Shown: in pieces, positions 1-62,963 of the stretch
How positions within the stretch are numbered: position 1 is the first letter of the stretch
How the letters are laid out: each line of letters starts with the position of its first letter
From: Leptogorgia sarmentosa
Taxonomy: Eukaryota
Direction of reading: 5' to 3'
DNA length: 64,000 nt
NCBI GenBank assembly: GCA_964658305.1
Contig: OZ210885.1
Location: forward strand, 4,216,001-4,280,000
The notes under the pieces: generated by a model
The model's database searches: none
What the model was told of the DNA's origin: nothing
Seen by the model: the letters and a program-made list of their open reading frames with translations, nothing else
Program-made: the position numbers and the translations under genes

Positions 1-1744
1 ATATAGTCACTGCCCGTGTCAAGAAATTGGAAGGTAATGAGTAATAATATAAGTAGTATAAGTGAAATTGCTCGAGTTATTTAAACGATATTTAACTACA
101 GGAAAACCACCGTCGTGCGATCAGTAGCGTATAATAACGAAGTAAATGTACTACTTCATTACGTAAGGGCTAGGAGTAAATTTTTTTGCCGGCATACCTG
201 TGCTTGGAACGAAGTAAGATTAAAAAGTAGCGCTTTACTAACTTTTATGGTATTATTGGTTAAACTTTCATTGGCTTTTAGAAAGAATTTCAAGTTTTGA
301 ATTCGACATCCGTCTAATGGAAACCAATTTGCATGCAATGATACTAGCGAAACTCGATGATTTATGGTTCGTTGTTTCACTTTTGAATTTTCATATAACT
401 AGGAAAAACAACCATCCTCCCTCTACATATCATGCCGGCTCCGTACAGTACTTTTACTTCATGTATTTTGATCTATTTTGCTGTAGTAATTTCTACTTTT
501 ACTCAAGTCGTTTTATTTCGAATTCAGGAGCGTAAATACCGAATATGGCTTGGGCGGTTCATGAAAATCAAACCGATCAATTACTGATATGCGAATTTAG
601 GCCTACTACAGCTAAAACCAGTTAATGCTACGAAAGTACGAATAACTTGTTTTTACCGAAAATATACAATGTATTTTATAGTTGTGATATAGTGGGTTGT
701 AGCAACGGTTAAAGCAGTGTAGCCAGCGAAAAACGGTTGGTCCTGTTTCGAGAATTTACTAGAAAAGTTTGGTCGGTTAAACAATCCCAAAGAGATAGTT
801 TGAATTTTGAATTTTCAATCGTTGCAATTTAGAGAGTACTCAAAGTTGTCTCACTGTTGTCAGGTTCTATTTCTGCGACAATTGTAACGCTGTTATGAAA
901 CGAGGCTTTATAGTAAGAATGCATATTTTCCCGCCAAAATTATATAACCTATCGGCCAAGACGATATGATATTTGCAAATATTCCTTGTCACAGAAGTGA
1001 TAAAAAATATCTTTTTAATATATATTGGCCTCTGTTATGTTGTACATTTTTTCTAGTAGCTATAATTTCCTTTCATTTCCTGTCATAAAGATACTTTAAT
1101 GGTATATTTGCCATCGTTTCAAAACTTGTTTAATGTGACGTCCGCGTCGTGAATTCGCGTTGTAGGTTTCGAGTGCCCTATTATGGCCATGCGACGTTTT
1201 TATTTCCAATATTGCTGTTTGTAAGGCGGAAGTCATTGAACATCAATTTCCGCCTGAAATGGGGTTGACTTCGCTTGTGCCAATAAAATATTATTAATAC
1301 ACGGAATGGAGGACTATAACTGGGCTCGGTTAACTGGATAGAGGCATTCGATTGGTTCATATTCCTTTAATCACATAGACAATCTAAGCAGGGCCGGAGT
1401 TATAGTCACTGCTTTGTTTTCAACAACATATTGATCGTTATTTCAAAAGAATGTGGTCTAAAGTAATGGCGTAGAAGTATATTTAAATTTATTATAGCAT
1501 TACTATATATATATATATAGTAGCAGTCGTAAGTGTGACTTTCACAGTTTTGTAATAGAAAGAAGGTGGCATGAAATGATTCGAAATGCTATGCGCGGAA
1601 TGTACATGCAAGGGAAACATACCTTCAGTTCAGTTTGATGAAACGATTTCTATTCATTTGATTCCATACGTAAAACACACAGAAAACAAACAATTCTGTT
1701 GTCTTGACACAATCTCTAAATTGAAATAATGTTTTCCATTTCAG

Positions 1745-2728
1745 ATGAATGACACAAACTCAGTAGAGACATTCAAAAGAAACCTGAACCTAAATTGCAT
1801 TGATAGCCAGATCACATCACAATTTCTCATTCGGAATAGTCTGGCGTTTGGTATATTCAACATATTTTTAACATTTGCAACGATACTACTCAATTTGACC
1901 ATGGTTGTCGCGTACATGAAATCGAAAATTTTAAAAACAAAGAATGCATATTTTATGGTCTTCATGTTGTCAGTTAACGATCTCATTGTTGGGTTGACAT
2001 CTAATGTCCTATTTGCTACAAATTTGTTGAAAGAATACAGTTCGCAAAGGACCGAATGTCTTCTGAAAAGAATACAAATATTGTTGCTGTTATTTTCCTC
2101 GGGGTGTTCATTCAAAACTCTGGTTGTCATGAGCTGGGAACGTTACGTTGCAATATGCCATCCGCTATTCCATCGAACGAAAGTCACTCAGAAACGTCTC
2201 AAGAAATGTCTGGCATTTCTTTGGTTTCTTGCATTCGTTTGTACAGTACTTTCGTGGCAATTCATTGAATTTTTTGATTACGTGATTGGTCCTGAGCTTA
2301 TTGTGTTCAGTATTTTTTTAGTCTATGTTTACGCAAGAATTTATCTAGCAAGTTCCAGATCGTCTAAAAACGTCATTCAAAATGCAGGACAGCAAGACGC
2401 TGATGCAAACACTGCGAGGGAAGATCAACGACGCCATTTCACATTGAATATCAGGCTAGCAAAGTCTTGCTGTCTGGCTGTGGTGTCTTTTGGTCTTTGT
2501 TATTTGCCATCGTGCATAATTACGAACGGGGCGTTTAACTTTGAAGGAGATTTGCAAATATCAGTTATTGTTTGGGCGGAAACCCTGATTTTGGCCAACT
2601 CGAGTATAAATTCAATTGTGTTTTTTTGGAGAAGTAAACCTCTGAGGAAAGAAGCACGTGCTGTTCTTAAACAAGTTTTCGCGCGAACAACGTTTGTCAC
2701 CAGGAATGTAGAACAAACAGGACGTTAA
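1745..2728 (+). CDS. Single-coding-exon class A (rhodopsin-like) GPCR, orphan, 327 aa
   Basis: Seven hydrophobic segments; TM1 LLN, TM2 LSVNDL, TM3 SWERYVAICHP (DRY-type), TM6 CYLP, TM7 NSSINSIVFFWR (NPxxY variant); N-terminal NDT sequon. An acceptor-like TTTCAG directly precedes the ATG. Confidence 0.93.
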   Translation: MNDTNSVETFKRNLNLNCIDSQITSQFLIRNSLAFGIFNIFLTFATILLNLTMVVAYMKSKILKTKNAYFMVFMLSVNDLIVGLTSNVLFATNLLKEYSSQRTECLLKRIQILLLLFSSGCSFKTLVVMSWERYVAICHPLFHRTKVTQKRLKKCLAFLWFLAFVCTVLSWQFIEFFDYVIGPELIVFSIFLVYVYARIYLASSRSSKNVIQNAGQQDADANTAREDQRRHFTLNIRLAKSCCLAVVSFGLCYLPSCIITNGAFNFEGDLQISVIVWAETLILANSSINSIVFFWRSKPLRKEARAVLKQVFARTTFVTRNVEQTGR

Positions 2729-9912: not shown

Positions 9913-11510
9913 TGAAACTTCCCTCCCCGAACTTCACATGCTTCCTACGCCCCTGGACACACACGACCCTTTTCTCACGACACACGACACCGGGGCAAAG
10001 GGCAAATGATAACATCATAACAGTTGACCAGGTGCGATTGTCTCGACCACACAGCACGTTTGGTTTTTCTGTTGAAACATTTGGCCTTGAAAAATTATCC
10101 GTTGGTTTGGATTCTGTAAAGCGTTTTGGCGAACAGTCTTTCATGGAAGTAAGGTAGGAATAAATTAAAACGAAGTATGGTTGTGTCAATTGACCTTTGA
10201 TCTAACGATGCCGTGCGCATTATTTGAATGAGCGCAAGAATTTGTTATCTAGCTCAGTCCTTGACCGTTCTGTTTATTACATATATAAACATGGTACGGG
10301 TGCACAAATTCATTCAAACCTGTTCGCTTAGGCCAGATAGACAAGCAGTAACTGAGTTTAATAATTATCCTTAATATGATAATGAATTGCGCAAGTTATC
10401 TGTGAAATCATACTCGTACAAGATATAATTGTATGAGTGAGTTTAATAATTATCCACATGTGGATAAAGTCAACACGTCCGATTGAATTTGCGAAAGCAG
10501 AAAAAGCCTATTTTATCTCAACCTTATCCAAGCAGGAGTTTTGAGTTTGATTGTATAATCATAATGGCATGTGGCATTTCTATTGAGACAAACTTGGGCT
10601 AGATTGCAGAATACCCGGCCGGTAGTCATATGTCACTGCGTAGCCATAATTTGAGTGGCTATACTGCAGTCATACGCGAATCACACGCGTGGCCGCGCTA
10701 TTTAGTCATCTATCACTGTGTAGTCACTCTTGCGCATTATCAAATTTCAAAATGCATGGATCTGAATAATTAAAGTTTACTGTAAACATGCAAAAATTCA
10801 CTAAAAATATTTGCATGTAGCTTCTGTACACTAGTAAATTAAAAGCGCGCCTACAATATGTAATATCCACATTCAAAAGATTTTTCGCGCACAATATATA
10901 TGGAATATTTAATAGGAAGCTTTACTTTGATAATATTTAGGAATTCGCTTGTTAGTAATTATCACCGTGATATTGTTACGGTCAGGGCTTACTGTTTGGG
11001 TTAGAGTTTACTGTTTGGGTTAGGGATTACTCTTTTGAAACGTCGAATTTTGGTCGCATCGAATGCAATTCAAACAATGGATAATGAGATGACTTACTTC
11101 ATTACCTATTGTTTGAATTGCATTCGATGCTGCCTCATGGTCCAATAGCATTTATCAGAAAATTGTGTTTCGCGACGATCCAAATGCTATAATATTCGTT
11201 AAAAAACGGAATTAACAAGTTTGTACAGTGGCGTCGCCAGACTTCATAAGTGTGGGGGAGGAAAAGGCCTTGGAAGATCAATAACTTGGGGGGGGGGGCA
11301 TATTCGGGCTTCCGCGGCCTCTGGTTATGGAGGAACACCTCTAGAGCAGTCAGCTGTTTTCCAGGAATTAAGAGTTGCTACAGTGTAGTTCCACATCACA
11401 AGTCACAACAGCAATTGATGTGGTAACGTGATTTCGGTAACATCAATTGATGCTCGTTTTTTCTTATCAGATCTTAATCAACCATAAATTCCACTGGTGA
11501 AATTTCTGAA

Positions 11511-14500
11511 ATGAAGGATTCCGCCAAAGTTACAACATCCAATCTTCAAGTCCCAGAAATTGTTCTACCCATGCTAGAAATTAAAGGTAAGCCTTTGCGG
11601 TGATTCGGTGAGATGAATTGACCAAAACCCTATTCTCGTAATTTCACAAAACCAATACTTAATGATTTCAGTCAGTGAGGGAACCATGTCATGAACATAC
11701 AATATCTTGTCTATAGCTAAGTTCTTTTCTTATCATGACAGTAATCTTAAGTTGTTGTTTCTTAATGTGCCTATGCCAACAAGGTAAACCACTGAAGTCT
11801 CTCTAAGTTATATCCGTAATGGCCTCTGTTATGTATTTTAAAGGTTCATGAGAAAGATCAATGTGCTAGATCTATCAAATTGTTGCTTACGCCCGTTTTC
11901 TACTTCATTATATCCCCGCTGGGGGCGAAGAGTTCTGAAAGAGAAATCATTTTTATACATTCAATAACCATAGAAGAATTTGTTCGGCCTCTGCAGTTGC
12001 TGAAAGTTTTCAACCTTTGTCTTACCTTTCACTGGCGGAGCTGAAAAAAAAACGAATTTTATCATATAGTAGACAGGACTGTGAGATCCTTCCCAGAAAA
12101 TACACAGTGAGATATTTTCCATATCTTCACTACTGAAGATATCGATCACGTGATCATTTCCCGCCAATAAATTTGTTTTCAAAATGGTAAAGTTTATCTA
12201 AGAGTAGCGAACCGTTTTTTTATCTTTGTTCAATGAAAAAAAACATGTTTTCGTCGCGAAAATGAAAATACAAGAAAAAACTAAAATGATGCCAAGGCAT
12301 TCTTTGAATTTGGATAATACGATGTGAGTAGTTGAAACGTTTAGCATTATCGATCAAAAATTAATAATATCGACTGGGTTTTACGACTATATAATAAAAA
12401 ATTCCCTCCGCTCATTCGTAAAATATTGTTTTCACCACTTGAAGATAAAATTCATATCTTCGCATCGCCGTCCCTGAAATGTAGAAGTTATCACCAATTT
12501 AGTTTTTTGTCTACCAGAGTTATTGATTCTGTTGTTTCTATAACTTTTAGATCGTATGCAACCAAAAGAAGTCACCGAAAGGACCAAAGTAATGGAGACT
12601 CCATCGAAAAACCCAACATTCAGACTTAAAGTCCCTGAAATTGTTTTGCCCATGCTGGAAATTAACAAAGGTTTGAATTGTTATTAAAATCCTTTACAAA
12701 ATGACGTGTTTCAAGACATTCTGAAGTACTTAGTTTTTGTCTAAAGGCAAGCTGAAGCGAAAAAAATCAGGTCTAAACAGTGGTCTTCAATATGTGTCCA
12801 GTGTTGCATGATTGCGGACAAACTCCAGACGTTCTACTCATTACCGAAACGATACAGACAGATTCCACGTCTCCAACGAAGGCAATTTGTTGAGAATCTG
12901 TTTATATCTTTCTGGTAGAACTTTTTCTACTTGTTGAGTAAACAGCTGCAGCAATTGTGACCTTAAGGATGCTTTCCACTGTTGCATTTTTGCATAGATT
13001 TTTCAAGTGTCTGCTTCTGAAAGATCCCCACACATGGAAAGAACCAGAAAATGATTCCGGTTTTCGAATAGTCAAAAATTACACCATTTTTAGCAGGGTC
13101 GATTTCAGAATATCATTTGTTCTTAAATGACAAATATTATAAGCTTTGTTTAAAAAATCACAGCTGTGGCAGAGATCTTATGTGATGAAGATTTACTTAA
13201 TTAAGCACTCCAGCTAGCGTTCGTGTTTCAAATTGTTCGTAAAATGATACAAACCTACTTTGATATATAGTAGTCCATGCAAACACTTTTAATTTCCACA
13301 TACATAAATTGGCAATTTGCTGTTTTTTTAATAGATCCTATCTGGCCGCAAAATCCAACCAGTAAAGGAAAAAAAACGGAAACCAGTACTTCTAAAAAAC
13401 CAGTACACCTCATTCCAGAAATTACTTTAGCGAAGCTGTCAATAACCAAAGGTGTGCAATTCTTATTTACAATATCAGTAAATATGACTATTATATCTAT
13501 TTAACATCACTTATGCTAATACAATTCGACATGATTTTGCGTGAAAGCTCGGGAAAAATAACGTGTGCATTAAAAGATCAAGTGATAAAATAAAAACAAA
13601 TCAGATCAATTTAATAAAAACCAAAAATAAAGGAGAAAGATAGTGAGCAAAAAGAAAAAAATTCGTAATAGTACTCCCAGTCAAATCTGAAGTGCGATGT
13701 TTCCATATTATATTTAGGTTTAAAAGTTGGCACAACTACATCACGAGCGCAGCTAGTGGCGAAGGTATTCCTGGATAAGTTGGAATATCCACTATCTTTA
13801 AAAAGGAAGTTCAAAAGGTGAGACTATGATCTGATACAAGTGAGATGTTACAGATAAGATCGGAATAATTTTTGGCCCTATATAAAATGTATCGTCAATG
13901 TGTGATTTTTTTACATAAGCCAGGGCCGGTGCTAGAACGTTAATTGGGGTTGGGGGATATTCAGATATTGCCGTTCTGCCGACTAATTTCTTCCGAAATT
14001 AATTGATAAACAACTGATTTCAAAAGTATCAGTCTCAAACTGCGTCTTGTTTTGAATTATATATTGATGATGTCAATTATATATTGAATTATATAATTAC
14101 ATCAAGATGTCCTGTATTTTCGGAATTTGTTTTTTACTTTATGAAAAAACGTCGCGCTTGCAATTATTACAAAGGGCGCCTGGATCCCAGGAACCATTAT
14201 ATCAGGTATATACTATATTTAATGGATATTTCTTCTTTAAAAGGTATCGCCCATGTGAAAAGTTCACGAAACAAGCGGTCAAAACATGGACTACATCACA
14301 AGCGCAGCTACTGGCGAAGGTATTCCTGGATAAGTTGGAATATCCATTATCTTTAAAAAGGAAGTTCAAAAGGTGAGACAATGATCTGATACAACTGAGA
14401 TGTTAGAGATAAGATCGGAACAATTTTTGGCCGACTGATTTCGTTTGGAATTAATTCATAAACAACTGATTTCAAAACAAATCAGTCGGCAGAACGCCAA

Positions 14501-17500
14501 TATATGAATATTTCCCCTCAAGGTGACGATCTTTTTACATAAGCCAGGGCCGGCGCTAGAATGTTAATTGGGGGGGGGGGGGTATTCATATTTTGGCGTT
14601 CTTCCGACTGATTTCTTTTGGAATTAAAAGAAATCAGTCGGCTGAACGCCAATATATGAATATTTCCATCTCCCTCCTCAATTAACGTTCTAGCGCCGGC
14701 CCTGGTATAAGCTCAACAGTCACTAAAATTCTCAATAATACTGTATGCAGAATGTAATGTGGCATGATTATTGAAGTTTCAGTCAAATTGAACACAAGTT
14801 CTAGAAATATTTTAAATAACAATACATGCAACTGGACCTAATCATTTGTTTTGAGAACGTCACTATACAACTCAACCTCTTCAAAAAGAAATTTTACCTA
14901 GTAGTTTGGCAACGTCATTAACTAGGTCAGCGGCGTAGGAAGATTGATAATAAGGGGGGCTCATATTCATATATTCGTGTGCTGCATCATTAATTTCTGT
15001 TGAAATCCATTGTTTTTATCGTCTGTGGACACGAATATATGAATATCAGCCTATGAATATTAGGTGTGACGAATTTTGGAACTTTTTGGGTGCCCACGAT
15101 CAATAAATTGCGGTTGAAGCGGGCGGCACATGTCGTTGCTCAAGGTTATTTATATATTTGCAGACGTCATCCAAACACAGAAACTGTAAAATTATTGTTT
15201 CACGTAAATCAATTCTGGGACGTAGGAACGTTTCAAAAATTGGGGGCCGAACCTCACGAGGCTCCACTATGGTTGGCGCCGAGCGAGAACATTTTGAACG
15301 TGTAGGGTTTGAACTTTGAAATGACAATTTCGGAGTCCAAACTCGACCTTTTTAGTTGGCTTCGTTGGGTATAGAAGTGAAAGATTGTCGACTAAGGCAC
15401 GGCTTTTTGGGAGGGCGGCCCCCTGACGCAGCACAATTGGGGGGGGGGGGTGCGGATAATAGAAATTTTCTTTTCTCCTAACATTTTTCGAAATAGATTC
15501 GACGATCTGGATGCACCCACGTCATCAACTAAAAGACGGAAGGTACGTATTGATGGTACCAATTTTACGTACAAACTTTGCAATGGTCTAAAAGTAAATC
15601 GCGAGCATTAATGCCCTGTTACACGATGTAACTTTTCTTTGATGCAATGAGTCTTCATTAGATTTTCTTAATGACTTTACAAATAAAAAAGTCTTCACTA
15701 ATTTACATGTTTTGAAAGCATGTCTTGAGGTGGAATAAAAGTTTTACAGCTAACCAAATGGTCGAGGATAGGTAAATGCTTCAGTTAGAATGATGCATAG
15801 TAAAATCAGATGTCATTCACCCGCATTTTAGGCAACAAATTACTGCCACAGATTAAGATCACGAAAACGTAATAAACGGTCAAAAAAAGGAAGGTATGAA
15901 TCTCTGCACATTTATTACGTCGCGTTCAAAAGCGTACTTTTAACGGCCGAGAGCGTGCTTTTAAGAGGCCAGAGGCAAAACTGGCGTTGATCGTATTCTG
16001 CTCGGCTAAATACTTTTAAAATTGAAGTACTTATAAACTAAAATTGGGTTTTTATTGATTCGGATAGAGCACAAAAAGTTAGTTAATGATTTCTAGATTA
16101 GTTTCCGAGATATAAAGATTCAGACATTCAAATTTGGCCATTTTATGAAAAAACCATGACCAGCCGACAATTTAAAAAAATAAAGTAAAAAACAAATTCC
16201 GAAAATACAGATTATCGGACATCTTCATTTGAAGATGACTTTGAAATAAAGTCGAAAATTTACAGTCTCAAACTGCGTCTTGTTTTGAATTATATATTGA
16301 ATTCTCAAGATGTCCTGTATTTTCGGAATTTGTTTTTTACTTTATGAAAAAAACGTAGAGCTTGCAATTATTACAAAGGGCGCCTGGATCCCAGGAACCC
16401 ATCATTTCATGTATAAATATATTTAATGGATATTTCTTCTTTGAAAGGTATCGCCCATATGAAAAGTTCGCGAAAGAAGCGGTCAAAAAAGATGTTCAAA
16501 CAAAGGTATGATTCGTTGCCATTCTTGTTGTCATCCGAATATCTGAAAATTACCTCAGACAAATCTCATTTTTGTTAGGCCACCACGACATCTTTAGTTG
16601 GGGAAATATTTCAGTCGTTCTTTCCAAACGAACTAAACAGTTACACGGACAACGAAGTGACAAAATCAATCAGACAACAACCTGTTACACAAAGGTACGT
16701 TATATTTTTAGAATATAAGCGCTATTCAACAATCTGATTGCCTAATAATTGTGCATTGTGACGCATTATATAATACATAATTAACTTCTAACCGTTTAAA
16801 TGGCTAATTATGGTCACGTGACGATGAACGAGCGATTTCTGATGCGATTTTCTCCTTTTGATGGATGTGCTGAGTGCAAACTTCCTCAGTTTTGGACCAT
16901 GAATACTTCTTTTTGGACCATGAATATTTCTTTTTGACCATGAGTATTTCTTATTGACAATGAGTATTTGTTTTTGACTATGGCTATCCCTTTTTGGACC
17001 ATGACTTATTCTTTTTGCACCATGAGTATTTCTTTTTGGACCAGGAGTATTTCTTTTTGGACCATGAGTATTTATTTTTCGACCATGAATATTCATTTTT
17101 GGACCTTGAATATTTTTTTTTTGACCATGAGTATTTCTTTTTTACCACGGGTATTTCTTATTGACCACGAGTATTTGTTTTTGACTATGGCTATCCCTTT
17201 TTGGACCATGAGTATTTCTTTTTGGACCATGAATAATTCTTTTTGGACCATGACTAATTCTTTTTGCACCATGAGTATTTCTTTTTGGACCAGGAGTATT
17301 TCTTTTTGGACCATGAGTATTTATTTTTCGACCATGAATATTCATTTTTGGACCTTGAATATTTCTTTTTGACCATGAGTATTTCTTTTTTACCACGGGT
17401 ATTTCTTATTGACCACGAGTATTCGTTTTTGAACATGAGTATTTCTTTTTGACCAAGAATAAATTCTTTGGACGAGCAAAAATATGAATTGTTTTGAACC

Positions 17501-20500
17501 TTAATCGTAGGTGCACTGGAATGAGTGTGGAAGAGGATCATGACCCAAATATGGAGCACGAGGTAATTTATCTGGGTGTGTAATTTATTGTCATACATCC
17601 AAATATTTCAAGTATCCGGAAGATAGCGTGAAATTAAACTTATCTGACCACAGAAATCACCCCCCCCCCCCTTGAAATGTAGATAAGAAATCATGCAGTG
17701 GTGTTGCTAACTACGAAATTAATCAGATAGATTATTAGATTGATGACCTACATCTCATAAAAGTATTAGGGCGTGATTCCATGAATGTTCTTTCTTTGCG
17801 AAATGCGAAAATTTTCATGTAAAATAATTGTATGCATGTGTGATAAAAGCAAATAAAATTTCTCGAGAAAAAAATTCGCTTCGCCAGGGAGTAGAAGTCA
17901 GTTCTAAAGTGAGTTTCGAAAGTGTGGAGAATTCAGTGGCATTATTCATGTGCGACTATCCGAATTTCCTGAATTTCTATCAGACAATTGCTCGCGGGAG
18001 ATTTCGCTGTCGTGGAATCAGGCCTCTGGCAATTAGTTAACAATATCTTTTTTCAGACAGTAGTAAAGTGGGTTGGTGAACCTGTAAAAGTTTCTGGGGC
18101 AAGAAATTATTATTCCAACGTCCTGGTTGATAACGAACAGGTATTTACGCTGATTGTCAAAATCACGTGATTTGCAGATTGCTGCATGTTGCACACGAAC
18201 TAAAACACATTTGAAGACACACAGTCACCCTTTCACCGATGTGATTTACTTGGCTAGAAATTTGATTTTGTTCCCGAACCTTTTCAAACTTGTGCAAAAG
18301 CAGTGACAACAATATACGGCTCACTGTGGCATTATAGCTAACAGTCTGCCAGACTTACACTGGATCTTAAATTTAAATCCATCTTTCAAAATATCTTTAG
18401 TTTTGGTCTTTAAACGTGACAAATATAATTATATTGTTGCTGTTATTGCCACGACTGCATGAAATCACATCATTCAAAGAGGGACCGACCATGTGTTTTT
18501 AAACTCCTAAAGAGCGCCTAACAGAGACTAACAGATGTTGACGACATAGCGCCCACAGTGCATTTCGTGCTTAGAATTTGAAGAAGGAGATTGACTTCTG
18601 AAAAGACGTTAATTTAAGTTGCATTATTAAACAAAAACGACAATATAATCAATACAATCAATATACTGTTAACGTATAGGTCGATATTGGTGATTATGTT
18701 CGAGTTTGCCCTACGGATCCCAAAGTGCCGCTGTATGTTTGCAAAGTAATTTCAATGTGGGAAAACAATGAAGGCGAAAAATTGTTTCATGGACGATGGT
18801 TCAGGTAAGGTTTGGATACCTTAATCCTTGGACTTTTTGTTTGTATAGATAATATAGTTAATACTGTGAAGGTAAACCTAAAAATTCCCTACCTTGCAGG
18901 TAACCTAGTATGCTATATAGTTAATCTGAGGTATGTTGACATGTTTTTTTTTATTTTCTAAATATAGCCATTGTTGGGACACTGTAATTGGCCATACTGG
19001 CGACCCCAAGGAACTTTTTCTAATTGATCTATGCGATGACAACCCATTAGGCTCCATTTTGGGAAAATGTGTGGTACGTGTACTAATATTACTATTTTAT
19101 AATTTTTTATTATATTCATTGTAGTTGATAAATGAGTTTCGATTGGTCAATTGCATATAGATAAATCAAGCAAAAACGTACCTGCAGATTACTCAGTTAT
19201 AAGAAATACGTTTTAAGCAAATTTTTGTTCAAAACAAACAAAATTACCTCGCCCCTTTTACGAGATAATTATCTTATCCAATTGTCGAGCTCACATATCA
19301 GAGTATAATGGTATGTACCCTCCGTGAAAAAATAAAAACAAATGTAGAATCTAGCTAGAAAATCAAGTGAATCAACAATAAATGAAATCTAAGCTCGTCA
19401 GAAGGAAAATGCACAAAATAAACTACAAATTCACTCAACAAATGTTTCACGATTAATTAACAGACAGAGGAATTGTACACGAGAAACCACGAGAAAACCG
19501 AAATTGCTCGGATTTTAAAGACGTTTTACCTCGAAGCGCGAAAAATGGTCTCGTATTAAGTGCACAAAATGCTAAAAAGCCAGAAAAACGCAAACTACCG
19601 AGAAATCGATTGGCTGCAAAACTCAAACTTGTTCGGCAAAACGAAAGACTGAATATCATTGAAACGATTATACCATTCTGCTTTTCGTATCAATTGTTTT
19701 ATTGAATTTAGGTTAAATACAAACCCCTTAGCGATAACTGGCTCTCGGATTGCACTGGAAAATGTGTCAACAAAGTCAATGACGGGGAATATTATTATCG
19801 AATGTGGTAAGTGAAATAAATCTAAAAATGTCTTTTCTAAGCATCGAGGTTTAATTGTTTTCGAAGCATTTAAACGATATGATTTCATGCATTAGGTTTG
19901 GCGCATGAAAAGTTCGATGTTTGACCTAGGCCTTAGCGGTACAAACGTTTAATGATGGAGGTATCTCATTCATGAAAGCCGGTTTGTCAAGACTTAAAAA
20001 ACATCATGCAATCCAGCAAGACGAATTCACTATTCACGCTTCATAGCTTTCACATCTTTGTACTTTGGAAACAGGCGATGTGTATACGTAGAAGAAATAA
20101 ATAATTACCGTAACCTAAAGCCTTGTACTGTTTCAGGTATGATGACGAATATGCTCGTTTTGAACAACAACTGGAGTATTGCGAGAAGGAGAAAGAAGAC
20201 GAGTGCATTAGTTGCATCAGATCACAAAGAAAAAAACAGGTATATGGTCTGCATACAGTATATGTTTGCAATCCTTAATGTTTCATCCAATACTTTTTCA
20301 AAATCAATTCGGAGGATAAGCTATCTTTATTAGATCAACAAACAGAAAATATGTCCTATGATCAACAACAGCAAATAATGTATGTAGCTATGTTTACCTT
20401 TGTTTTATTTAGTTCCACTCTGCCACCGTAGGGGAACTCCTAACACCTAATGATGTAGCCTCAACTGGGAATTTATTTAGGTAATTTATGATCAAAAATA

Positions 20501-23500
20501 AACCTATAGCTAGTAGCTACATAGATACCGAATCGTGTTATGGAATTTTAATCTGCATCATTTTTTTAGGAATGAAAATTTCTTCACCACATATGTGTAA
20601 TATAGCAGTACCACAACACCTGAAATTTTCAAACATATTTTGTCAATAATATATTCCGCCGATCTCCAAATGTTCCACTGACCCAATGAAAGGTCTTTGC
20701 TCATTTTGTTGAGCTCCGTTTGATCGTTCAAGAAGTGAGTCAAGCCCGTTTTCCACTCCACTATTTCGCAGTCGCCAGTGAAATAATTTGACAGAAAAAT
20801 CATTTTTTTACATTCATTCGCTAGTGAAAAAAAATTGTTCTACATCTCCAGTTGTTCAAAACTTCCAACTTTTGTCTGACCTTCCGCAAATAGCGTCGAA
20901 GAACAGCGAATTGAATTTTTCGGTGGCAAAAATTTTCGCCAGCGGCGACGAAGCTATTTTTCCCTCTCGTAAACGGTCGTTGCCTTCCAAAACGGTCGAT
21001 GCCTTCCCTGCTCGCATTTTAAATGTTACATAATGCATTTCCACTATAAATATTTTTGTTTTCGACATTTTCCAGCGAGCTCGAAATTAGCTCAGACGGA
21101 TAGGCACGCGGTACGTGCGTCTGTCGCAGTTTTAAAGTTCAAGCCCCGGTTCGACACTTTTTTTCGCGTTAGTGATTTCAACTTTTCAATATTTTCCCGA
21201 CTTTTATGGTTAGGGTTAGTATTTTAGGGTTTGGGTTGGGATTAAGCGTATTTCAAATTTTTAAATTTGTCATAAACTAGGCAAAAAGCGAGCAGGGAAG
21301 GCATCGACGGTTTTGGAGGGCAACGACCGTTTACGAAAGGGAAAATTGCGGCGGCGAAATGCGTGAGTGGAAAACGGGTTTGAGACGATTGCTGTTGAAA
21401 CGGGTTTGCTGAACACTAAGAGAACATGTGACATGCAAAGTACGCAGTATCAAACCATTAAAAAATACAGTAGCAAAAAATGTTTACGAGACCTTGACAA
21501 AAAACAAAAAAAAATCATTTGGTAACTATCATATTTTTAAGAACAATCAACATTTTATGCGTTTGATGAACAATGTCTTGAAATAACCTGATTATCAAAC
21601 ATTCCTAAAATAAGCCCAAGAAGGCTTGAAAAGAATTTTTTAGGATATAAAAAAAATTACCAGATCATTTTAGGATACTAGAAAATTTGATCAGGTCATT
21701 CTGAATGATCCTAATCATAAAAAAGTGATGTCGAAATTAGCTACATTGCCACCTTAACGCTACGGTTAATAGTAATAGCTCAATACGTTTTGATCACCAG
21801 GCATGTTATAACATATTCCGCAGATCATTTTATCTTTGTGGTGTTCAGTATGAAATTGGTGACACAGTCTACCTCACACCAGATGCCTTCGATTTCAGGT
21901 AAGCTGTAACTTAATTTCATTTGCTTGTAAAAGAGTCGCATTGTAAATTTTATTCATAATAAAAAAATTATTATAAAATGCGTGAATATTACAGCAAGCG
22001 GAATATACGGAAATTTTGAATCAGAACTAAAATGCAAATTCAACCAACTTCACACAATCGAAATCCATCTTTGGAATGTACAAGTATGTTACGCAATGTA
22101 CAAGTATGTTGCAGTTGGAACGATCAGGACGTGAACCCTCCGCACAGTGCAAATGTTACCCTCTTATCAGTCTTACCTTGCATTTATCTTTTCCAAGATT
22201 CCCACTGGCTGAACCGAAATCGGTTGCAAAAAACTTGGATCATAAGGTAAGTGGAAAGCAAAAATTGTATCTGGGTCGAAAGATAGGTTCCTGCATGTTA
22301 TTTAGAATTCAAGAGTGAAAAATAGAAAAGGAAAAACAGGGGACAATAAATTATTTCATTTGTCAAGGAAAACAGAACTGATATTTTATGCGATTACTTT
22401 GAACTCAAGTTACGTTTACATTGTATCGGATCTCTTGCTTACCGACGCAAAAACCAAGCCGGATTAGGCTTCTGTTTACACCGCAAACGATGAAATAACA
22501 TCAATCTTACAAACAAAACAACCATGCGACGCTCCGCAGTTCGAAGTGGCGCCGATGGCGTGTCGGATCAGCTTTTGTGTCGCTTTTCTTCTAGTGTAAA
22601 TACTAATCGAACCGATTTTGAGTACGAATTTGGAAACATGATTCGAAATGGCTCCGTGGCAAACTCAACAACAACTGTAGGGGCACCGTAAGATGTTTAC
22701 ACATCTGCCGAAGCGCTGCGCGAACGAAACAACAGGTGATCCGATACAATGTAAACGTAGCCTCAGATACTTGTTACATGATGTTTAATTTTTTTAAAGT
22801 CCTATTTCTTTTTCAAAAACAGGACGAGGACCTCTATCCCGAATACTACAGGAAAAAACAAGCGGGACAGAAAATGTCCAATCCTAGACCATTTAACATC
22901 GGTAATGTATACATCATGACCGACTGCGGTGTTAAGGAAGTTAAAAACATAAATATATAGCGCTCAATATACGGTAAAAGCATCAGTAGACAATTAAATT
23001 GCATATTGGCCAATGGATTCACTTGCCATGAAGGGCGTCAATCCTGGGGGGGGGGGGGGGTATGGGGGGGAGGCGTCCCGAAGAAAAATTGTTTTTTGGT
23101 AATCTTAAAACCCCAAGCCTGTATGCTATACATCGTGAATTGTGAAGTACAATCAACAATCTGAGATCAGAAGAAAACTATTCGGAGCCTTCGAATAGTT
23201 ATGCGAATGAAATCCTAATTGGAAAGGCAATAAACCGACCTCAGCCACGTACACACGTTCAAATTTGCTTTTGTCTGAAACCTAGTTTTACCATTCTATT
23301 TTCACCATTTCACCAGGGAGGGAAAAAAAGAATTATCAATTAAAATCATAATATATTGATTCTCTAAAGGACAAATCTTATCAATTAAGAAGAATAAAAC
23401 AAATACGGAGAAAGAAAACGTGATGATGGAATGCACCATTAGAAAATTTTACAGGTATTGCTTTAAACAAATTGAGTCCACGACGGACAAAATGCCACGT

Positions 23501-35500: not shown

Positions 35501-36472
35501 AAATAAGTTGTAAATAAATTACCTGTAATAGTTGAATACATGTATATGCGAAAGGGGAAAGAAATTGATGAACATGGCTGGGATGTACAATCATTTTTGA
35601 AAGTATAGTTGGAAAACCAATGGTTTTAGGGTTAGGGAATATAGGGTTAGGGTATAGCGGAATATATGAAATACGTCTATATCAAGCCATATTGTCGTAT
35701 TCAAGTGTATTTGGTTGGCTTTCCCCTCGGCTACGTCATGCACACTTTTGCAGTATCTACTGGATAAAAATTATTGATGTAAAGCAAGTTTGTCCACCAG
35801 TATTTGCTACACAACGGATCGAAAAACTGGGTGTTCCAGTATTATTGGGACTCTGTCAGAAATCCCTACAGGTGAATTGAAAACATGATCACGAACATAT
35901 GTGAATTTTGCTCATAACTACAAACAATAATAGCATCCCTCCCCTCCCCCTCCTCATTCAATGTTGTTTTGCCAATCCATACACTATTGTACGCGAAAAT
36001 CAAATACTAACTACAGCTAGGGATAATCCCTATTGTGGGGGGATTAGCCTTCAAGTAAATGATGCGATATGGGGTATCTGCCCCACCACATTTGAAAACG
36101 ATTGTACCAACAGGGGTAGCAGACAGACTCCCAATGTTCAGCTCAGGGTATCAGGTATCGCTTGGCGCAAACATTGATGTTCTGGCGAACTTCCTCACTT
36201 TCAGCGACCTCAAATTTTGGCACTGAAAAAGCTCCCTCTCCTCTCTCAGAAATGCAGCTTGTATGCCTTATCCTATTACATGCAAAATTCTTCATAGTCA
36301 TTAAAGCCACCACAAGTGTATTCACAAGTTTCGTGTATGATTTTTAAAAAAATACATTGGTTAACTCTTTGGTAATAATGCAACAGAAGTTATTTTTATA
36401 TAGGTTGGAAATGCAGTTCCACCTCCAGTGGGGAAATGTCTCGGGTTGGCAATCAAACAAGCATTTCAATGA
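11511..36472 (+). CDS. DNMT1: Divergent DNMT1-family DNA (cytosine-5) methyltransferase, 31 predicted coding exons, 1076 aa (BAH1, BAH2, C5-MTase)
   Basis: Hand-spliced GT-AG exons, all phase-compatible, 3231 nt with no internal stop: 11511-11586, 12551-12670, 13335-13451, 13718-13817, 14244-14372, 16448-16505, 16579-16694, 17511-17562, 18057-18140, 18680-18804, 18968-19073, 19712-19806, 20137-20239, 20413-20480, 21824-21898, 22198-22246, 22823-22901, 23370-23454, 23887-23960, 24076-24194, 24381-24449, 25051-25111, 26876-27027, 28241-28369, 29105-29251, 32669-32827, 32991-33083, 33394-33560, 33641-33878, 35351-35467, 36404-36472. DNMT1 signatures: [70 protein letters not shown] (I), GGPPCQG (IV), ENV (VI), QSRHR (VIII), [34 protein letters not shown] (IX), QVGNAVPPP (X). 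Exons from 16448 on are homology-supported; the first five and the start codon are less certain. Confidence 0.93.
14545..14705. mobile_element. hAT-type MITE in a DNMT1-like intron (partial sister copy at 13921-14025)
   Basis: TIRs CAGGGCCGGCGCTAGAA / TTCTAGCGCCGGCCCTG; flanks ACATAAGC and GTATAAGC resemble a decayed 8-bp TSD. Confidence 0.7.
16890..17458. repeat. Minisatellite with a 20-21-bp unit (TTTTTGGACCATGAGTATTTC-like) and a higher-order repeat
   Basis: Over 25 tandem degenerate units; variant blocks (GACTATGGCTATCCC, GCACCATGAG, GACCAGGAG) recur in the same order. Confidence 0.95.
20957..21346. mobile_element. MITE with ~57-bp TIRs
   Basis: TTTTCCCTCTCGTAAACGGTCGTTGCCTTCCAAAACGGTCGATGCCTTCCCTGCTCGC matches the reverse complement of 21288-21346; internal TAGGGTT motifs; second copy at 2811. 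Confidence 0.85.
22409..22761. mobile_element. MITE (PIF/Harbinger-like termini)
   Basis: GTTACGTTTACATTGTATCGGATC ... GATCCGATACAATGTAAACGTAGC inverted termini. Confidence 0.7.
24853..25026. mobile_element. Small MITE with GCATAA micro-repeats
   Basis: AAAGCTGGTTCTCACTGAACATAAGC ... GCTTATGTTCACTGAGAACCAGCCTT inverted termini. Confidence 0.7.
27246..27318 (-). tRNA. tRNA-Thr(AGT)-derived pseudogene or repeat head
   Basis: GACCTCG TA GCTC AGTTGGTA GAGC A TTGGA CT-AGT-AA ACCAA AGGTC GCGGG TTCGATT CCCAC GGAGGCC A. A and B boxes are intact, but there are 2 acceptor-stem, 1 anticodon-stem and 1 T-stem mismatches. It lies inside an inverted-repeat element (27188-27421). Confidence 0.75.
28585..29012. 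mobile_element. MITE with TAG...CTA termini
   Basis: TAGAGACCTTACGATTGGCGT ... ACGCCAATCTTAAGGTCTCTA. Confidence 0.7.
29287..30061. mobile_element. 775-bp almost fully palindromic Tc1/mariner-type MITE
   Basis: TA|CAGGGTGTAT...ATACACCCTG|TA; arms of about 350 bp are near-perfect reverse complements. Confidence 0.92.
30066..31691 (-). mobile_element. Full-length Tc1-superfamily transposon (DD37E/TRT type), 1626 bp, intronic
   Basis: 28-bp TIRs CAGTACGTTCG(T/C)TTTGATTATGCAAATC with 1 mismatch, TA on both flanks, single transposase frame. Confidence 0.95.
30449..31462 (-). pseudogene. DD37E transposase (337 codons) with one premature stop
   Basis: MGKNRDL...[15 protein letters not shown]...FQHDNAPAH...WPPNSPD*NPIENLW. 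The TAA at 30653-30655 replaces the Leu of SPDLNPIE; 37 residues lie between the second D and the E. Confidence 0.92.
34068..34487. mobile_element. Palindromic MITE-like element
   Basis: ACTACCATTTGCAAGCAAACGCGAACGGCGAACATTTTA ... TAAAATGTTCGCAGTTCGCGGTTGCTTGCAAATGGTAGT. Confidence 0.75.
34927..35173. mobile_element. Tc1/mariner-type MITE
   Basis: TA|CAGGGGGGTGGACAAAAAATAGTGGCCCCCAG ... CTGGGGGCCACTTTTTTTTGTCCACCCCCTG|TA. Confidence 0.85.
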
Positions 36473-38019: not shown

Positions 38020-38320
38020 GTAGTCGTTAGGCAATACTTTAGGTCTGTTTCATCTTCTGGACATTGGTGGATTGGTTGAGATCTGGTGCTTGTGGGACGG
38101 TTGGTTGTTCTTCATCAACATTCTCGGTTTGTTCAGCTATGGTTGGTGGTGGAATGTTTGTCTTTAGTAGATCGCGACGGTTTCATCTGTATTGCTGCTC
38201 ATCTAGTGTAGTGATAGTATATATGATCTTGAAACAAGGACTACTCCTGATACAATACCTGGTACCCAGATGCTGTTCTGACGTTGGTGGAAACTTTCTC
38301 CAATGTCAAGTGGTTGATGA
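38020..38320 (-). mobile_element. Ty3/Gypsy integrase C-terminal remnant
   Basis: Minus strand WVPGIVSGV...RSYI...QQYR*NRRDLLKT with a frameshift and stop; purine tract (minus strand) at ~37879-37892. Confidence 0.6.
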
Positions 38321-38324
38321 CAGC

Positions 38325-38965
38325 ATTATAATATAGTTCTCTTTGTCGTTTTTTGAGATATGGGCTGATGTGCTTGAGTAGACCAAGTCGCTTTGACAAC
38401 TGCTTGCATAAGTGATCGATGTGGGCCTCGTAAGTTAAACTTTTGTCAAGAGTTACACCCAGCAGCTTTTGGCAGGAAACTTGGTCTATTTGAGTGTTAC
38501 CCAGTTTGACAGCTAAAGCTAAATTTTCGTTGTCATTTTCTAATATTTTCTTCTCGAGACGCTTGCCAGTTACCAATAATGACTTCGTTTTGTCGGTGTT
38601 TATAATCATCCTATTTCGAGTCCACCATTCACTAATTTTATCAAGATCATTATTGATGTCTTGAACCACAGTTGGAATATCAGTCCAATGCGCACTCGCT
38701 GACAGTGTTGTGTCATCTGCAAAAATGTCAATTGATGTACGAGTTAAGTGTAATGGTAGATCATTCACAAACAACAGAAACAGTACAGGCCCCAGAACCG
38801 ATCCCTGGGGTACGCCTTGCTTGATGGGTAAACAATCGGACCGTTGTCTTTCAATGGTAACAAACTGAGATCTGTTAGTCACATACGACGTAAACCAAGA
38901 TAGTGCTGAATCACTAACTCTGTAAAGCTTTAGCTTGGTTAATAAAAGTTGATGATCCACAACAT
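38325..38965 (-). mobile_element. Non-LTR retrotransposon RT fragment (CR1/L2-like)
   Basis: DHQLLLTKL...GVPQGSVLGPVLFLLFVNDL...FADDT...KLLGVTLD. Confidence 0.9.
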
Positions 38966-38969
38966 CGAA

Positions 38970-39563
38970 AGCAGTAAGAGACAGTCGTCTGTCTCGAGAT
39001 CAACAACGGAAGCGGAGTATATTGCTCTAAGCAATGCATGTCAGGAAGGAGTTTGGTTAAGAAAGTTGATGTCCGACATTAAATTAAAAGAAGTGGAACC
39101 AACAACAATCTATGAGGACAATCAAGGAGCCATTCAACTATCAAGAAACCCAAAGTTTCATAATCGGACCAAACACATTGACATTGCGTATCATTTTGTT
39201 AGAGAACAAGTTAGTCGTAATGTAATTTCTGTTAAGTACTGTCCAACAGAGAAGATGGTAACTGATGTCATGACAAAACCATTACCAAGAGTATCATTTG
39301 AAAAATTTAGCGACTTGTTAGGAGTAAAGGAAATTAACTAACGGATACATTGGTCATAGGCTTTAGTTCAAGTTTGTGTTTTTAGTTGATCATTAAGTGG
39401 GAGTGTTGGATTCAGTATACTTCATGTTAGTATTTAGTAATAATCAACTATATACCTAAGTCACATGATATAGCAAGCACATGTTTTGTTGTAAGTAGAA
39501 AGCTGTTCATATTTCGACAAATAAAGATGGGTTAACTACTTTCGTTCGAAACACATTTTAACA
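38970..39563 (+). mobile_element. Ty1/Copia 3' fragment: RNase H, PPT and putative 160-bp LTR (39404-39563)
   Basis: SKRQSSVSRSTTEAEYIAL...YEDNQGAI...RTKHIDIAYHFVRE; AAGTGGGAG followed by TGTTGG...TTAACA with an internal AATAAA. Confidence 0.88.
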
Positions 39564-41629
39564 GAAAATGGTCCAATAAACGCTGGGTAAAAATCGTTCT
39601 TCAGCGGAACAAGTGCCTTACCCCTCCCCCCTTAATGTTTGATGTTTATTAGCCTTTGTATAGTGTTTTAGATGAAGTATTTGGGTAGTTTAGGTAGTTT
39701 GTTTGTCGGCAGCAATCTTTTTTACTTTTTATTCGGTGAAATTGTTATAGAGATTTGCTTTTGTTTTGTGTCATATTACTGAACAGTCTTGACTAAAATG
39801 ACTAAGGCTCATTCGGGTAGATTTGGAAAACGACGATTTTGTGGCAATCGCCACACTACAAGCCGGCAGAAAAGCGACGAAGGTCTTCAGGAGTACGCCA
39901 ACATGTGTGGACCCATCTTCTAGTGGTGCTGTCAACAGCAACATCACTTCTACTCCCGCAAGTTCGCCAGTACCCTCTGCTTCAGCAAGAAAAAGTCGTT
40001 ACACCAGAGCCTGTGGAGATTCAGGAAACTGAAGGAGAACCAAAGGGCTATCGACTGATCGATTTGTCAATTGTAAACGATTAGGGAATGTAAACGATTC
40101 ACTCTGGAATTGTTTGAAAACATTTCTAAACATAAAGGCTGTGCTTCTACCCTGGAGCTTCATTGCCAAGCATGTGTATGGAAAGAGGAATTCTACACTT
40201 CTGCCAAGATCAGTTACTTTTTTGAAGTAAACAGACGGTTGGTGTATGATATGAGGTCAGTTGGATGTGGTGGTACTGCTGCTGAAAGGTTCTGTGGTAT
40301 GATGAACATGCCACCAATACCCAGAGCATCACCATATGCTGTCCACAATAAAGCATTGATGAAAGTTGCCAAGGAGGTTTGCCAAGAAACCATGAGTGAG
40401 GCTGCCAAGGAAATTCATGTCGAAGCGAATATGACGTAGTCCATCCGGTGTCGGAGTCACTCATAAAAAGCAGTGGGGCTGCCATCGCAAAAAAAGCGCG
40501 GGAAATAGCCCCTGCATTATGCCTCTAACCGGGAGCCCCCGGCAAACAACTTCGACTTATTTTATAGCATGAGGTTCGTGGGCCGACAACATGCGAGATA
40601 AGCTAAAAAATTCTACAAGTACTGACTACTGGATATGTTGTTCCTAACCTCATAGACCTGACCTTGGTGGGTGCTAGAACTCCAACGTTGTTCGCTACCG
40701 GGCTGGGAACCATACATTTCTCCCTCGTATAATCAGAATTATAGGGGCACGACGCTAAGCGGCGCTGGTATAATTCAAATTATACTTCACACTCTCCGGT
40801 CGAAAGGCGAAGCAGAGGACGAAGTCACTGATTGCAGAATTTCCTGTGATGATACCTGGCAACGGCGAGGATTCTGTTCCTCGAACGGGGGTGTGACTGC
40901 CATTTCCATGGATACAGGAAAAGTCGTGGATGTGGAGGTGATGAGCAGATTTTGCAAAAAGTGCCAAAAGCATGAAGACGATCAAGAAACTCCAGAAAAC
41001 ATTGCCTGGAAGGCTGATCACAAGGCTAAGTGCAAGATTAATTTCCAGGGTTCCACACCAGCCATGGAGCCAGAAGGTGCAGTGAGGATTTTCAAACGTT
41101 CAGTGGAAACGAATAAGCTCCGCTACACAGAGTATTTTGGTGATGGTGACAGCAAGAGCCATACTGCTGTGGAAGAGATTTATAATACTGACAAAGATGC
41201 TGTCCCAGTACGAAAGAGTGTGTTGGCCATGTGCAGAAGAGGGTGGGGACAGCACTTAGGAAGTTCCGTAAGGAGAATAAAGGGATGGGTGGAAGAGGGA
41301 AACTGACAGATACAGTGATTGACAAGCTCCAAAATTACTATGGGATAGCTGTGAGGAGCAACCCTGGTGATCTTGGAGCCATGAAGAAGGCCATTTTGGC
41401 CAGTCTATTTCACTGTGTCTCTTCAGAAAAGAACAACTTGTTGATTTCATAACTTTAATAAACCCTTTTAATACAGTGAAATAAATTGTTCAACCTGTTA
41501 ACAATACAACAAAACACGAGGCATAAAAATAGATACGTAGAATGTTCGTACAAGAATGCATTGCGCAATATCAATTCAACACTCCTTCTCATTCGCAGTT
41601 CGAATGTTCATTTAGCTAAGTTTTACTAC

Positions 41630-44600: not shown

Positions 44601-45405
44601 TCCAAGTTTCTTTGTTAATTTCAGAACCACTTGCTGCCAAACTCTGTACAACAAGTCCTAGACTTTCTGAATGAGTGCCTGGCTGACCTTTTCCAGCTTG
44701 ATTTCCTTTTGGCAAATGTGATTTTGCTTTCTCGGCATTTTTGTCCTTTAAATCTTTTCAAAAACGCCTTATGTGGCCAAGTTTTCCACAGTGATGACAT
44801 CTAACTGATTTTATATCAGTTTTCTCCGTTTTTGCTGCTACCATTACTTTACCACTAGGTTTGGATGGACTTTCTTGTTCACCCAATTTCTTTTCTTCGT
44901 AGAGTAATCTTTCAGTCACAACTTCCATCTGTGGAACTTCATTATTTGTTTCTAAAGCAGTGACAAGCATATCATAGCTTTCAGGAAGACTTGCAAGTAG
45001 AGTTACCACTTTATCTTCCTCTTGCATTGGTGCACCAATAACAGCTAAATCGTTAAATATTTCAGTCATAGCTTTAATATGACTTGACATAGAATTTCCA
45101 TCTTTCAGCCGTAGATTAATCAATCGCCGTCGTAAAGATCGCCACACTGTCACAGGGTCTTCAGGATCTCCGAGCAAGTATAACAGTGAAGTATCAACCG
45201 ACAGCACAATAATCGCCAGTGCTTTATCCTTACGGCTAATAAACTTCGCATACTTTTCAGCTTCTGTTGAAGCAGGAGCAGTTTCAGTCCCAGAAACAAT
45301 GCTCCACAGCCCGTCTTTCACGAGAGCCATACGACATTGGACTTTCCAAGTCCCATAGTTTGACCCTTTTAACGGAACAACCGTAACAGTTCTCGCTTCC
45401 GCCAT
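41630..45405 (-). pseudogene. Copia gag-pol polyprotein, frameshifted
   Basis: Gag with knuckle CHHCGKLGH, protease WIVDSGAT, integrase RTDNGGEF/QNGVAER, RT YKARLVAQGF and HVDD, RNase H DADWAGD; broken across ORFs 44758-45405, 44473-44715, 42528-44654, 42211-42423 and 41708-42115. Confidence 0.95.
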
Positions 45406-49900: not shown

Positions 49901-50041
49901 CTGAATTTATTGTTAAATTGAGTATATATAGGCAAGTTTTTTCAAAGAAATTTTAAGGAAATTTTATTCCTCAATCAAGGAAATCTAAGGAAATATTGAC
50001 ATAAATCTCAGGAATTTTAAAATTTGACTGTGGAAGCACTG
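46913..50041 (+). mobile_element. Complete hAT DNA transposon, 3129 bp
   Basis: Perfect 8-bp TSD AATAGGGA (46905-46912, 50042-50049); imperfect TIRs CAGCGTTTCCAC / CAGTGCTTCCAC; subterminal AAGGAAAT repeats at both ends. Confidence 0.95.
47268..49681 (+). CDS. Intact 3-exon hAT transposase, 698 aa (47268-48297, 48407-48589, 48798-49681)
   Basis: Phase-compatible GT-AG introns give 2097 nt with no internal stop; BED-like CKIC...H...H, IIDETTD, CADTCNVMFG, CSSHLIHL, TRWLS, SNAAVERVFSQL. Confidence 0.92.
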
Positions 50042-61070: not shown

Positions 61071-61074
61071 AATC

Positions 61075-61703
61075 ATACTTCAGAAGAGCCAAAGAATCCC
61101 TTGGAATGGGGACTGAAACACAAATTGCTTGATTGATCTCTACCGCGCACTGCTTCAAGAGCACGAATGCTTTCCGAATTTGTCAAGAATAATTAAGATT
61201 GCTCTAACTATTCCTTTGACATCGGCATCGACCGAGAGATCATTTTCAAAGCTGAAGATAATCAAAAATCGCCTGAGGTCGACAATGACGCAAGATCGAC
61301 TTGACTCACTAATGCTCATGTCCGTAGAATCTGACATTTGTCAAAAACTTGACATCGGAGAGCTTGTTAAACGTTTTAGTGATGCAGCTCCTCGAAAATG
61401 GAACTTGTATTAATTTGTCGTCCAACAAATTTGAATCCTGTCTTGTGATTTGTTGGGATTTTGAGATTAATTGGGCTTTGCCTAAAATATTTCCTATATA
61501 GCCGATGACATATTTGATATTAGCAAATTACTGTAAGCCGTGTTTCTCACAGTAGCAAAATGTTCATTTTTCTGTGTCAGATGGACCATGGTACTTTACT
61601 GAGTTGGGGGGGGGGGGAGGGAGGGAGTTTCGGGACTCTATCATTGTGCGATTTATAAATTAAAAACTTGCCCCCCCAAAATAAAATCCTGGCGGCGCCA
61701 CTG
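61075..61703 (+). mobile_element. hAT 3' fragment (dimerisation domain and right terminus)
   Basis: FPNL...PLTSASTERSFSKLKIIKNRLRSTMTQDRL; ends CCTGGCGGCGCCACTG. Confidence 0.85.
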
Positions 61704-61719
61704 ATCAGAGTGTCTTTAG

Positions 61720-62910: not shown

Positions 62911-62963
62911 CTACATGTCCAAACCGGAAGAGGATCAAGACGGAAAAAGCAAACACCTAAAAC

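Follow-up and report, generated by a model that had tools for sequence, protein, structure and literature searches.

In invertebrates, DNA methylation is usually presented as consisting of DNMT3 activity on gene bodies and of maintenance by UHRF1 and DNMT1. A different targeting route is described for Neurospora DIM-2, a DNMT1-superfamily enzyme that inserts a PxVxL-like motif of its N-terminus into the chromoshadow groove of HP1, lacks the hemimethyl pocket in its target-recognition domain (TRD), and is proposed here as a working analogy. DIM-2's RFTS and BAH1 domains read H3K9me3, one HP1 dimer is bound through one motif and a TRD surface, and this second contact orders the TRD and activates the enzyme allosterically (PMC11315935). 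Among animals, DNMT1 duplicates with domain loss are described in Capitella teleta, in which one paralogue is without RFTS and the other without CXXC (PMC11292947), whereas accounts of DNMT1 otherwise present its architecture as a conserved one (PMC12344493).

We investigated a window of 64,000 nucleotides (the whole stretch of DNA analysed) from Leptogorgia sarmentosa, contig OZ210885.1. In our preferred reading, to which we give a probability of roughly 0.4, it carries an intact octocoral DNMT1 duplicate with an N-terminal motif array predicted to dock HP1 chromoshadow dimers, so that what is likely a de novo methyltransferase would be directed to chromatin methylated at H3K9. Joining the exons by coordinates gave a DNMT1-derived gene of 33 exons and 1112 amino acids, from the ATG at 11511 to the stop ending at 36472, in one open frame without internal stops and with GT-AG boundaries at all 32 introns. 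The five repeat exons that encode the array are in phase with the BAH and methyltransferase exons. From a helix beginning at 16579 onward, 470 of 893 residues are identical to the Dendronephthya gigantea DNMT1 XP_028404799.1 (P0001), which was both the best match in the first search with the window gene and its nearest canonical relative in the tree. Three listed read runs derive from one sample and yield unspliced DNA contigs that are perhaps the source of the assembly, and hence do not count as independent support. We regard it as almost certain that this is a real gene with a selected motif array.

All of its features lie on the forward strand. Downstream of the repeat exons, the gene model contains three short basic exons (15497-15542, 15832-15893 and 16448-16505), likely a nuclear localisation signal or DNA-binding linker. 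The second of these has about 25 nucleotides in common with the exons at 14244 and 16448, although the model reads it in another frame, and its only role is to recover the phase when exon 15497-15542 forms part of the model. Comparison with DNMT1 identified a relic of the helix that normally follows the RFTS (16579..16694), with no CXXC after it, and the gene model includes a shortened form of the acidic linker that follows the CXXC in DNMT1 (17511..17562). The BAH1 and BAH2 exons (18057..24449) and the C5 methyltransferase exons (25051..36472, stop codon 36470-36472) complete the order characteristic of the DNMT1 family. The catalytic Cys (28313), the Glu of the ENV motif (29168) and the Arg of RxR (32717) are intact in the methyltransferase domain, as are motifs I and X.

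The earlier note had implied that the RFTS is missing, and this is borne out: across the window, tblastn with four DNMT1 queries detected neither an RFTS exon nor a CXXC exon. Since the post-RFTS helix and the post-CXXC acidic linker remain, both domains were apparently deleted from a canonical ancestor. A 21-nucleotide minisatellite of 27.5 copies occupies 16890-17455, within the intron that corresponds to the position of the CXXC exons, and another intron of the gene contains a tRNA-Thr(AGT)-like sequence (27245-27319, reverse strand).

A BAH-profile search (45 matches from 5044 candidates) recovered an orthologue from Paramuricea clavata, CAB3990120.1 (P0171), which is annotated only as a partial DNMT1 and has its motif array unannotated. 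BAH is its sole Pfam family. Like the window gene, it has a repeat N-terminus, the post-RFTS relic helix, no RFTS and no CXXC, and changes in the BAH1 pocket; unlike the window gene, it is a partial model that ends after BAH2 and has a different number and order of repeats, with five clear motif copies and one degenerate copy. The two proteins are identical at 294 of 596 aligned residues, and the junction residues match. When the N-terminal 340 residues of the P. clavata protein were compared with proteins of 363-1157 amino acids, one of the 5015 candidates matched, which was the protein itself. Its single-sequence fold had a mean pLDDT of 33, too low to be informative.

In a tree of 14 rows, from which tick, moth, lamprey, one lizard and one copepod-like sequence were left out, the window protein was nested among animal DNMT1 and paired with CAB3990120.1 with support of 100/100, within an octocoral clade also supported at 100/100. 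A quick tree of 19 rows that included the long-branch tick sequence gave the same result. The pairing indicates that the duplication predates the split from P. clavata, and the stem of the pair measures 0.64 changes per site. The canonical octocoral protein, XP_028404799.1, shares the BAH1-BAH2-methyltransferase order with the window gene, but has the RFTS, CXXC, KG linker and standard hemimethyl pocket, and is without the motif array. A second D. gigantea DNMT1, XP_028404801.1 (P0170), resembles the window gene in being an octocoral duplicate without the KG linker, but retains the RFTS, the CXXC and M1535/K1537. Its contig is equal in length to that of the canonical gene. The protein is a possible intermediate stage; its grouping with the window gene received support of only 57/42, and the alternative was not rejected (p-AU 0.45). 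Residues 23-30 of this protein, near the N-terminus, form one LxIxLxRV motif with a basic residue at +4.

The five [VI]xLxxL peptides named in the earlier note are present where it placed them, in five consecutive AG/GT-bounded exons with phases that join, and each motif is located near the 3' end of its exon. Repeat exon 1 (11471..11586, predicted start 11511) carries copy 1, with its core at 11544-11582 and the central Ile at 11559. Gene model and comparison place copy 2 in repeat exon 2 (12551..12670; core 12625-12663), copy 3 in repeat exon 3 (13335..13451; core 13406-13444) and copy 4, of the AxVxL type and followed by a basic stretch, in exon 4 (13718..13817; core 13750-13788). Exon 5 (14244..14372; core 14305-14343) was identified by DNA comparison as a recent chimeric duplicate carrying copy 5. 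The sequence 5' of 11511 is read as untranslated because it contains a stop and is one nucleotide shorter than exon 3, and a non-coding exon upstream of repeat exon 1 is implied. The 5' part of repeat exon 1 (11471-11510) is still alignable with exons 2 and 3.

The motifs, called PxVxL-like in the earlier note, do not match PxVxL strictly, as the cores are PxIxL in three copies and AxVxL in two; the six frames of the window hold 39 strict PxVxL, none of them among the five motifs. The 236-residue N-terminus contains the [VI]xLxxL pattern five times; in 20,000 shuffles the average was 0.21 and five was never reached, although the five copies are duplicates and not independent, so that this comparison overstates the surprise. 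Exons 1-3 are homologous to one another at the DNA level. Exons 4 and 5 share 96% identity over 83 nucleotides, inside a 143-nucleotide duplication that extends over intron sequence, and exon 5 is chimeric, with its first 41 nucleotides 93% identical to exon 16448-16505 and its 3' part derived from exon 4. Between exons 3 and 4, DNA homology was not significant at p<0.05. A derivation of exon 4 from the post-RFTS helix exon was considered and rejected, as it was not significant against shuffles.

The earlier note described the motif as the conserved part of exons with divergent and probably disordered flanks. Conservation centred on the motif is correct for copies 1-3, while for copies 4 and 5, at 96% identity, the flanks are not divergent. 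Disorder is supported only in part: in a charge-hydropathy plot, residues 1-236 as a whole fall on the disordered side, but residues 1-104 fall on the ordered side. Searches with the motif repeat returned no profile match and no usable match in the atlas. In the 6,652 residues that precede the RFTS in 38 further DNMT1 proteins, many of them redundant, a comparable pattern occurs five times, and two of these occurrences are in isoforms of the second D. gigantea copy.

The motif is also conserved in the one orthologue available, where the core stands out above its flanks. Lack of conservation in orthologues, which the earlier note had named as a refutation, was not observed. Across 11 copies (five from the window, six from P. 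clavata), Leu at +5 and Leu or Ile at +2 are invariant (11/11), Ile or Val occupies position 0 in ten, Pro position -2 in seven and Leu position -5 in six. One P. clavata copy is LxVxL, strict PxVxL is found in none of the six, and the segment that matches copy 4 has a degenerate core, GxAxL. Between species, the core (-5 to +8) showed 112 of 210 pairwise identities, compared with 34 of 249 in the ungapped upstream flanks; gapped flanks gave 5-8 identities of 24. Between copies 1 and 2, pN is 0.03 and pS 0.41 in the core, compared with 0.43 and 0.42 respectively in the flank (Fisher p 0.00065; p 0.014 by shuffles that allow for the chosen 13-codon window). By these substitution patterns, the core of copies 1 and 2 is under protein-level constraint, that is, purifying selection, and the result covers the type of copies 1-3. 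Such constraint also provides indirect evidence that these exons are translated.

These comparisons bear on the simplest alternative, that exon duplication in an N-terminus under relaxed constraint produced the repeats incidentally, with no binding function for the motif, or that the exons are absent from the mRNA. Duplication at this locus is indeed local and ongoing, and the motif lies at exon ends, where splicing signals constrain the sequence too. However, core synonymous sites diverge like those of the flank while replacement sites do not, the junction residues match between species, and the best core pair across species (11/13, copy 2 against a P. clavata copy) is more conserved than BAH1 (109/170). 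We therefore consider this explanation already largely refuted and highly improbable. The array is, very probably, a set of protein-docking strands, several per chain, which would provide avidity.

We considered three possible partners for such strands. For an HP1 ligand, as proposed in the earlier note, the hydrophobic frame (-2, 0, +2, +5) fits, but the access code defined for Drosophila HP1a is followed by none of the 11 copies. A hydrophobic residue at -2, Val or Ile at 0 and an aliphatic residue at +2 occur together in all five window copies (Ala at -2 in two) and in five of the six P. clavata copies. In the solved complex of Chp2 and Mit1, from the HP1 family, a central Ile occupies the groove (PMC6499331). 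HP1a ligands typically carry hydrophobic residues at -5, +5 and +7, and the access code consists of a basic residue at +4, three to six basic residues within -4..+4, and no acidic residue at -6, -3, -1, +1 or +5 (PMC12526061). Ligands of this type share the alternating hydrophobic core and Leu +5 with the window copies, which are missing their basic cluster (PMC12526061). Three basic residues within -4..+4 were found in 0/11 copies and a basic +4 in only 5/11, and Glu at -1, preserved by selection, was present in six of the seven Pro-type copies. The scarcity of basic residues together with this Glu accounts for the failure of all copies against the code. Basic residues are frequent in mammalian HP1 ligands too, which likewise counts against HP1. 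In DIM-2, an acidic residue, D133, lies beside the motif centre (PMC11315935), indicating that the Drosophila charge rule is not universal. Degenerate PxVxL-like pentamers are present in more than half of a proteome, and ten of 20 candidates failed in cells (PMC12526061). Our chromoshadow alignment comprised 32 animal sequences from metagenome loci, with Pfam PF01393 confirmed in both of the two tested. Counting residues, the acid beside the centre of the DIM-2 motif would pair with an Arg of the groove, at a position occupied in these animal sequences by Thr, Ser or other uncharged residues; an octocoral HP1 carrying a basic residue at this point would be the preferred partner for Glu at -1. 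A KAP1/TRIM28 peptide was cited in the earlier note as having the same spacing as the window motifs; in the papers searched, we found no confirmation for the KAP1 and CAF-1 peptides. Judged from the sequences of the copies, the HP1 chromoshadow groove may be the receptor, at a little under even odds.

The second possible partner is the AHD of AF9/ENL, for which the ligand consensus is LxVxIxLxx[VL], with the form LxAxIxLxxI in CBX8 (PMC8022399). The spacing of [VI]xLxxL equals that of this consensus, and AHD ligands have the alternating core and Leu +5 found in the window (PMC8022399). Copies 4 and 5 read LxAxVxLxxL, as in CBX8, and copy 3 reads LxPxIxLxxL. Nevertheless, the Leu-x-Val start of AHD ligands is missing here: the consensus Val is found in none of the 11 copies, Pro stands in its place in seven, and the first Leu is present in four. 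The best-fitting copy, copy 4, is moreover degenerate in P. clavata. The replacement of Val by Pro in seven of 11 copies favours HP1 over the AHD, which we consider quite improbable as the receptor.

Alternatively, the array might dock elsewhere, for example on an octocoral-specific chromatin or small-RNA factor or on an HP1 paralogue with an altered groove, and the protein would still be a retargeted de novo methyltransferase. In its favour, strong selection acts on a motif with Glu at -1 and Met at +4, both avoided in known HP1 ligands, and the repeat has no profile or atlas match. Against it, no candidate can be named, and the hydrophobic frame suits the HP1 class with no extra assumptions. 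We rate a partner of this kind as unlikely, although ahead of the AHD.

Under the HP1 reading, as under the last alternative, the enzyme itself would have left the maintenance pathway, and the TRD is relevant here. In mouse DNMT1, the hemimethyl pocket is formed by C1501, L1502, W1512, L1515 and M1535, with further contacts by K1537 and Q1538 (PMC5062992). Rewiring of this pocket was overlooked in the earlier note. Alignment of the target-recognition exon (33641..33878) identified changes at four of these seven hemimethyl-CpG positions, in mouse numbering C1501S, L1515K, M1535D and K1537Y, giving the set SLWKDYQ in place of CLWLMKQ. The latter is found in 110 of the 160 aligned sequences that were scored (from 162, some of them short fragments that enter introns at the last positions), among which Lys replaces L1515 in four, Asp replaces M1535 in three and Tyr replaces K1537 in two. 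A fragment of 136 amino acids (P0010), the top match among 1.84 billion representatives at 73% identity, has the same contact set, which is thus not private to this genome. As CAB3990120.1 is without the methyltransferase and P0010 without the N-terminus, the window provides the only chain on which the array and the rewired TRD are observed together. Strongly altered contact sets were also observed in other DNMT1 fragments, including P0011 and P0127 (e.g. SLCRFLQ and FLCKDFQ), which suggests repeated or rapid diversification of DNMT1 specificity.

We additionally identified changes outside the contact set. A TRD segment of 30-43 residues in the other 49 of 50 sequences is reduced to 18 in the window, with about 18 residues missing, the catalytic loop reads YSFLN in the window alone among 67 sequences, and the gene has lost the KG linker that 32 of 40 sequences possess. 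BAH1 retains three of the four residues that define the H4K20me3 pocket (PMC8093215), namely Tyr, Trp (18797) and Asp, while the fourth, a second acid, is Leu, and an extra Trp precedes the conserved Asp (18797-18804, 18968-19040); the Leu and Trp changes are also found in P. clavata. The histone mark bound by this BAH1 may accordingly differ from H4K20me3. Together, the changes in the TRD, catalytic loop, linker and BAH1 would suggest an enzyme no longer bound to the maintenance mode or, alternatively, one of reduced activity.

The TRD deletion, in particular, could impair the enzyme, and a weak or inactive methyltransferase might function chiefly through its array, in the role of a scaffold or cofactor. 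The uniqueness of the 18-residue deletion and of the YSFLN loop (1/67), and the stem branch of 0.64, are in keeping with this, but the sequence retains motif I, the catalytic Cys, ENV, RxR and motif X in intact form, and the 470 matches among 893 residues aligned with canonical DNMT1 also argue against it. A scaffold role is, in our view, very unlikely, more so than docking on the AHD.

We accordingly return to the reading of an HP1-docked de novo methyltransferase. The DNMT1 duplicate, with one open frame of 33 exons and its catalytic residues intact, has lost the RFTS and CXXC and gained its motif array by tandem exon duplication, under purifying selection in two species. Under this reading, the motif would then serve as a docking strand, with avidity provided by several strands per chain, and the HP1 chromoshadow groove would take Pro or Leu at -2, Ile or Val at 0 and Leu at +2 and +5. 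The absence of both autoinhibitory domains, together with the altered hemimethyl pocket, has presumably removed the dependence on UHRF1 and on a methylated template, so that the enzyme would act independently of both and might prefer another sequence context. We consider such independence, with a possible shift in sequence context, probable.

The analogy with DIM-2 drawn in the earlier note is a loose one. Both systems would place an N-terminal motif in the HP1 groove, but DIM-2 retains its RFTS and needs a second HP1 contact, so that a replacement of the RFTS by HP1 binding, as the earlier note proposed, would exceed the DIM-2 mechanism rather than copy it. The window gene further differs from DIM-2 in its descent from animal DNMT1 and in its motif array. 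Orthology with DIM-2 is not supported, as the identity to animal DNMT1 is 53% compared with approximately 16% to DIM-2, and the octocoral clade is supported at 100/100 in a tree that contained no DIM-2 sequence. If the HP1 reading holds, the gene functions as DIM-2 does while lying outside the DIM-2 family. The chromodomain insertion typical of plant chromomethylases is absent from the methyltransferase domain, which is colinear with that of DNMT1. The fullest form of the proposal, a heterochromatin-directed de novo methyltransferase that arose in octocorals from a DNMT1 duplicate, with multivalent HP1 recruitment and a new specificity, and as an independent counterpart of DIM-2 and the chromomethylases, is tentative and rather doubtful as a whole.

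As in Capitella teleta, the window gene is an animal DNMT1 duplicate with domain loss, but a double loss accompanied by the gain of an array is not described in the available part of that study (PMC11292947). The presence of DNMTs in cnidarians has been reported in a paper of which the available part contains no paralogue of this kind (PMC8857923). Across the literature searched, which did not extend to supplements or to most subscription papers and was in part available only partially, no octocoral DNMT1 paralogue was described that is without RFTS and CXXC and has a motif array. A DNMT1 copy without its autoinhibitory domains and hemimethyl pocket, and with a selected array, is a candidate third targeting route of independent origin, and with this paralogue one can ask directly whether DNA methylation guided by HP1 is able to evolve anew in animals. 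If the array docks on HP1, an animal would have gained a fungal-style route for methylating silent chromatin. Even with a partner other than HP1, octocoral methylation outside the standard maintenance logic is predicted, which is checkable by bisulfite or nanopore data.

Finally, we inspected the surroundings of the gene. The nearest recognised coding sequence upstream is an intronless rhodopsin-family GPCR (1730-2728, forward strand). A Tc1-type transposase (30653-31600, reverse strand) lies inside an intron of the gene. Downstream are reverse transcriptase fragment, Mutator-like, copia, hAT and PIF1 helicase sequences, with transposon or helicase stretches at 38241-38999 (reverse), 40662-41306 (forward), 41708-45414 (reverse), 47265-49681 (forward) and 60380-61009 (reverse), and an NHL-repeat open reading frame at 52209-54143 (forward). 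The observed/expected ratio of CpG is 1.0 over the gene (11470-36472), which thus carries no footprint of gene-body methylation, as would fit restricted expression. No depletion of non-CpG contexts was evident in the window. The local transposons are CpG-depleted, with a ratio of 0.68 over the transposon block (38000-64000) and 0.54 over 50000-64000.
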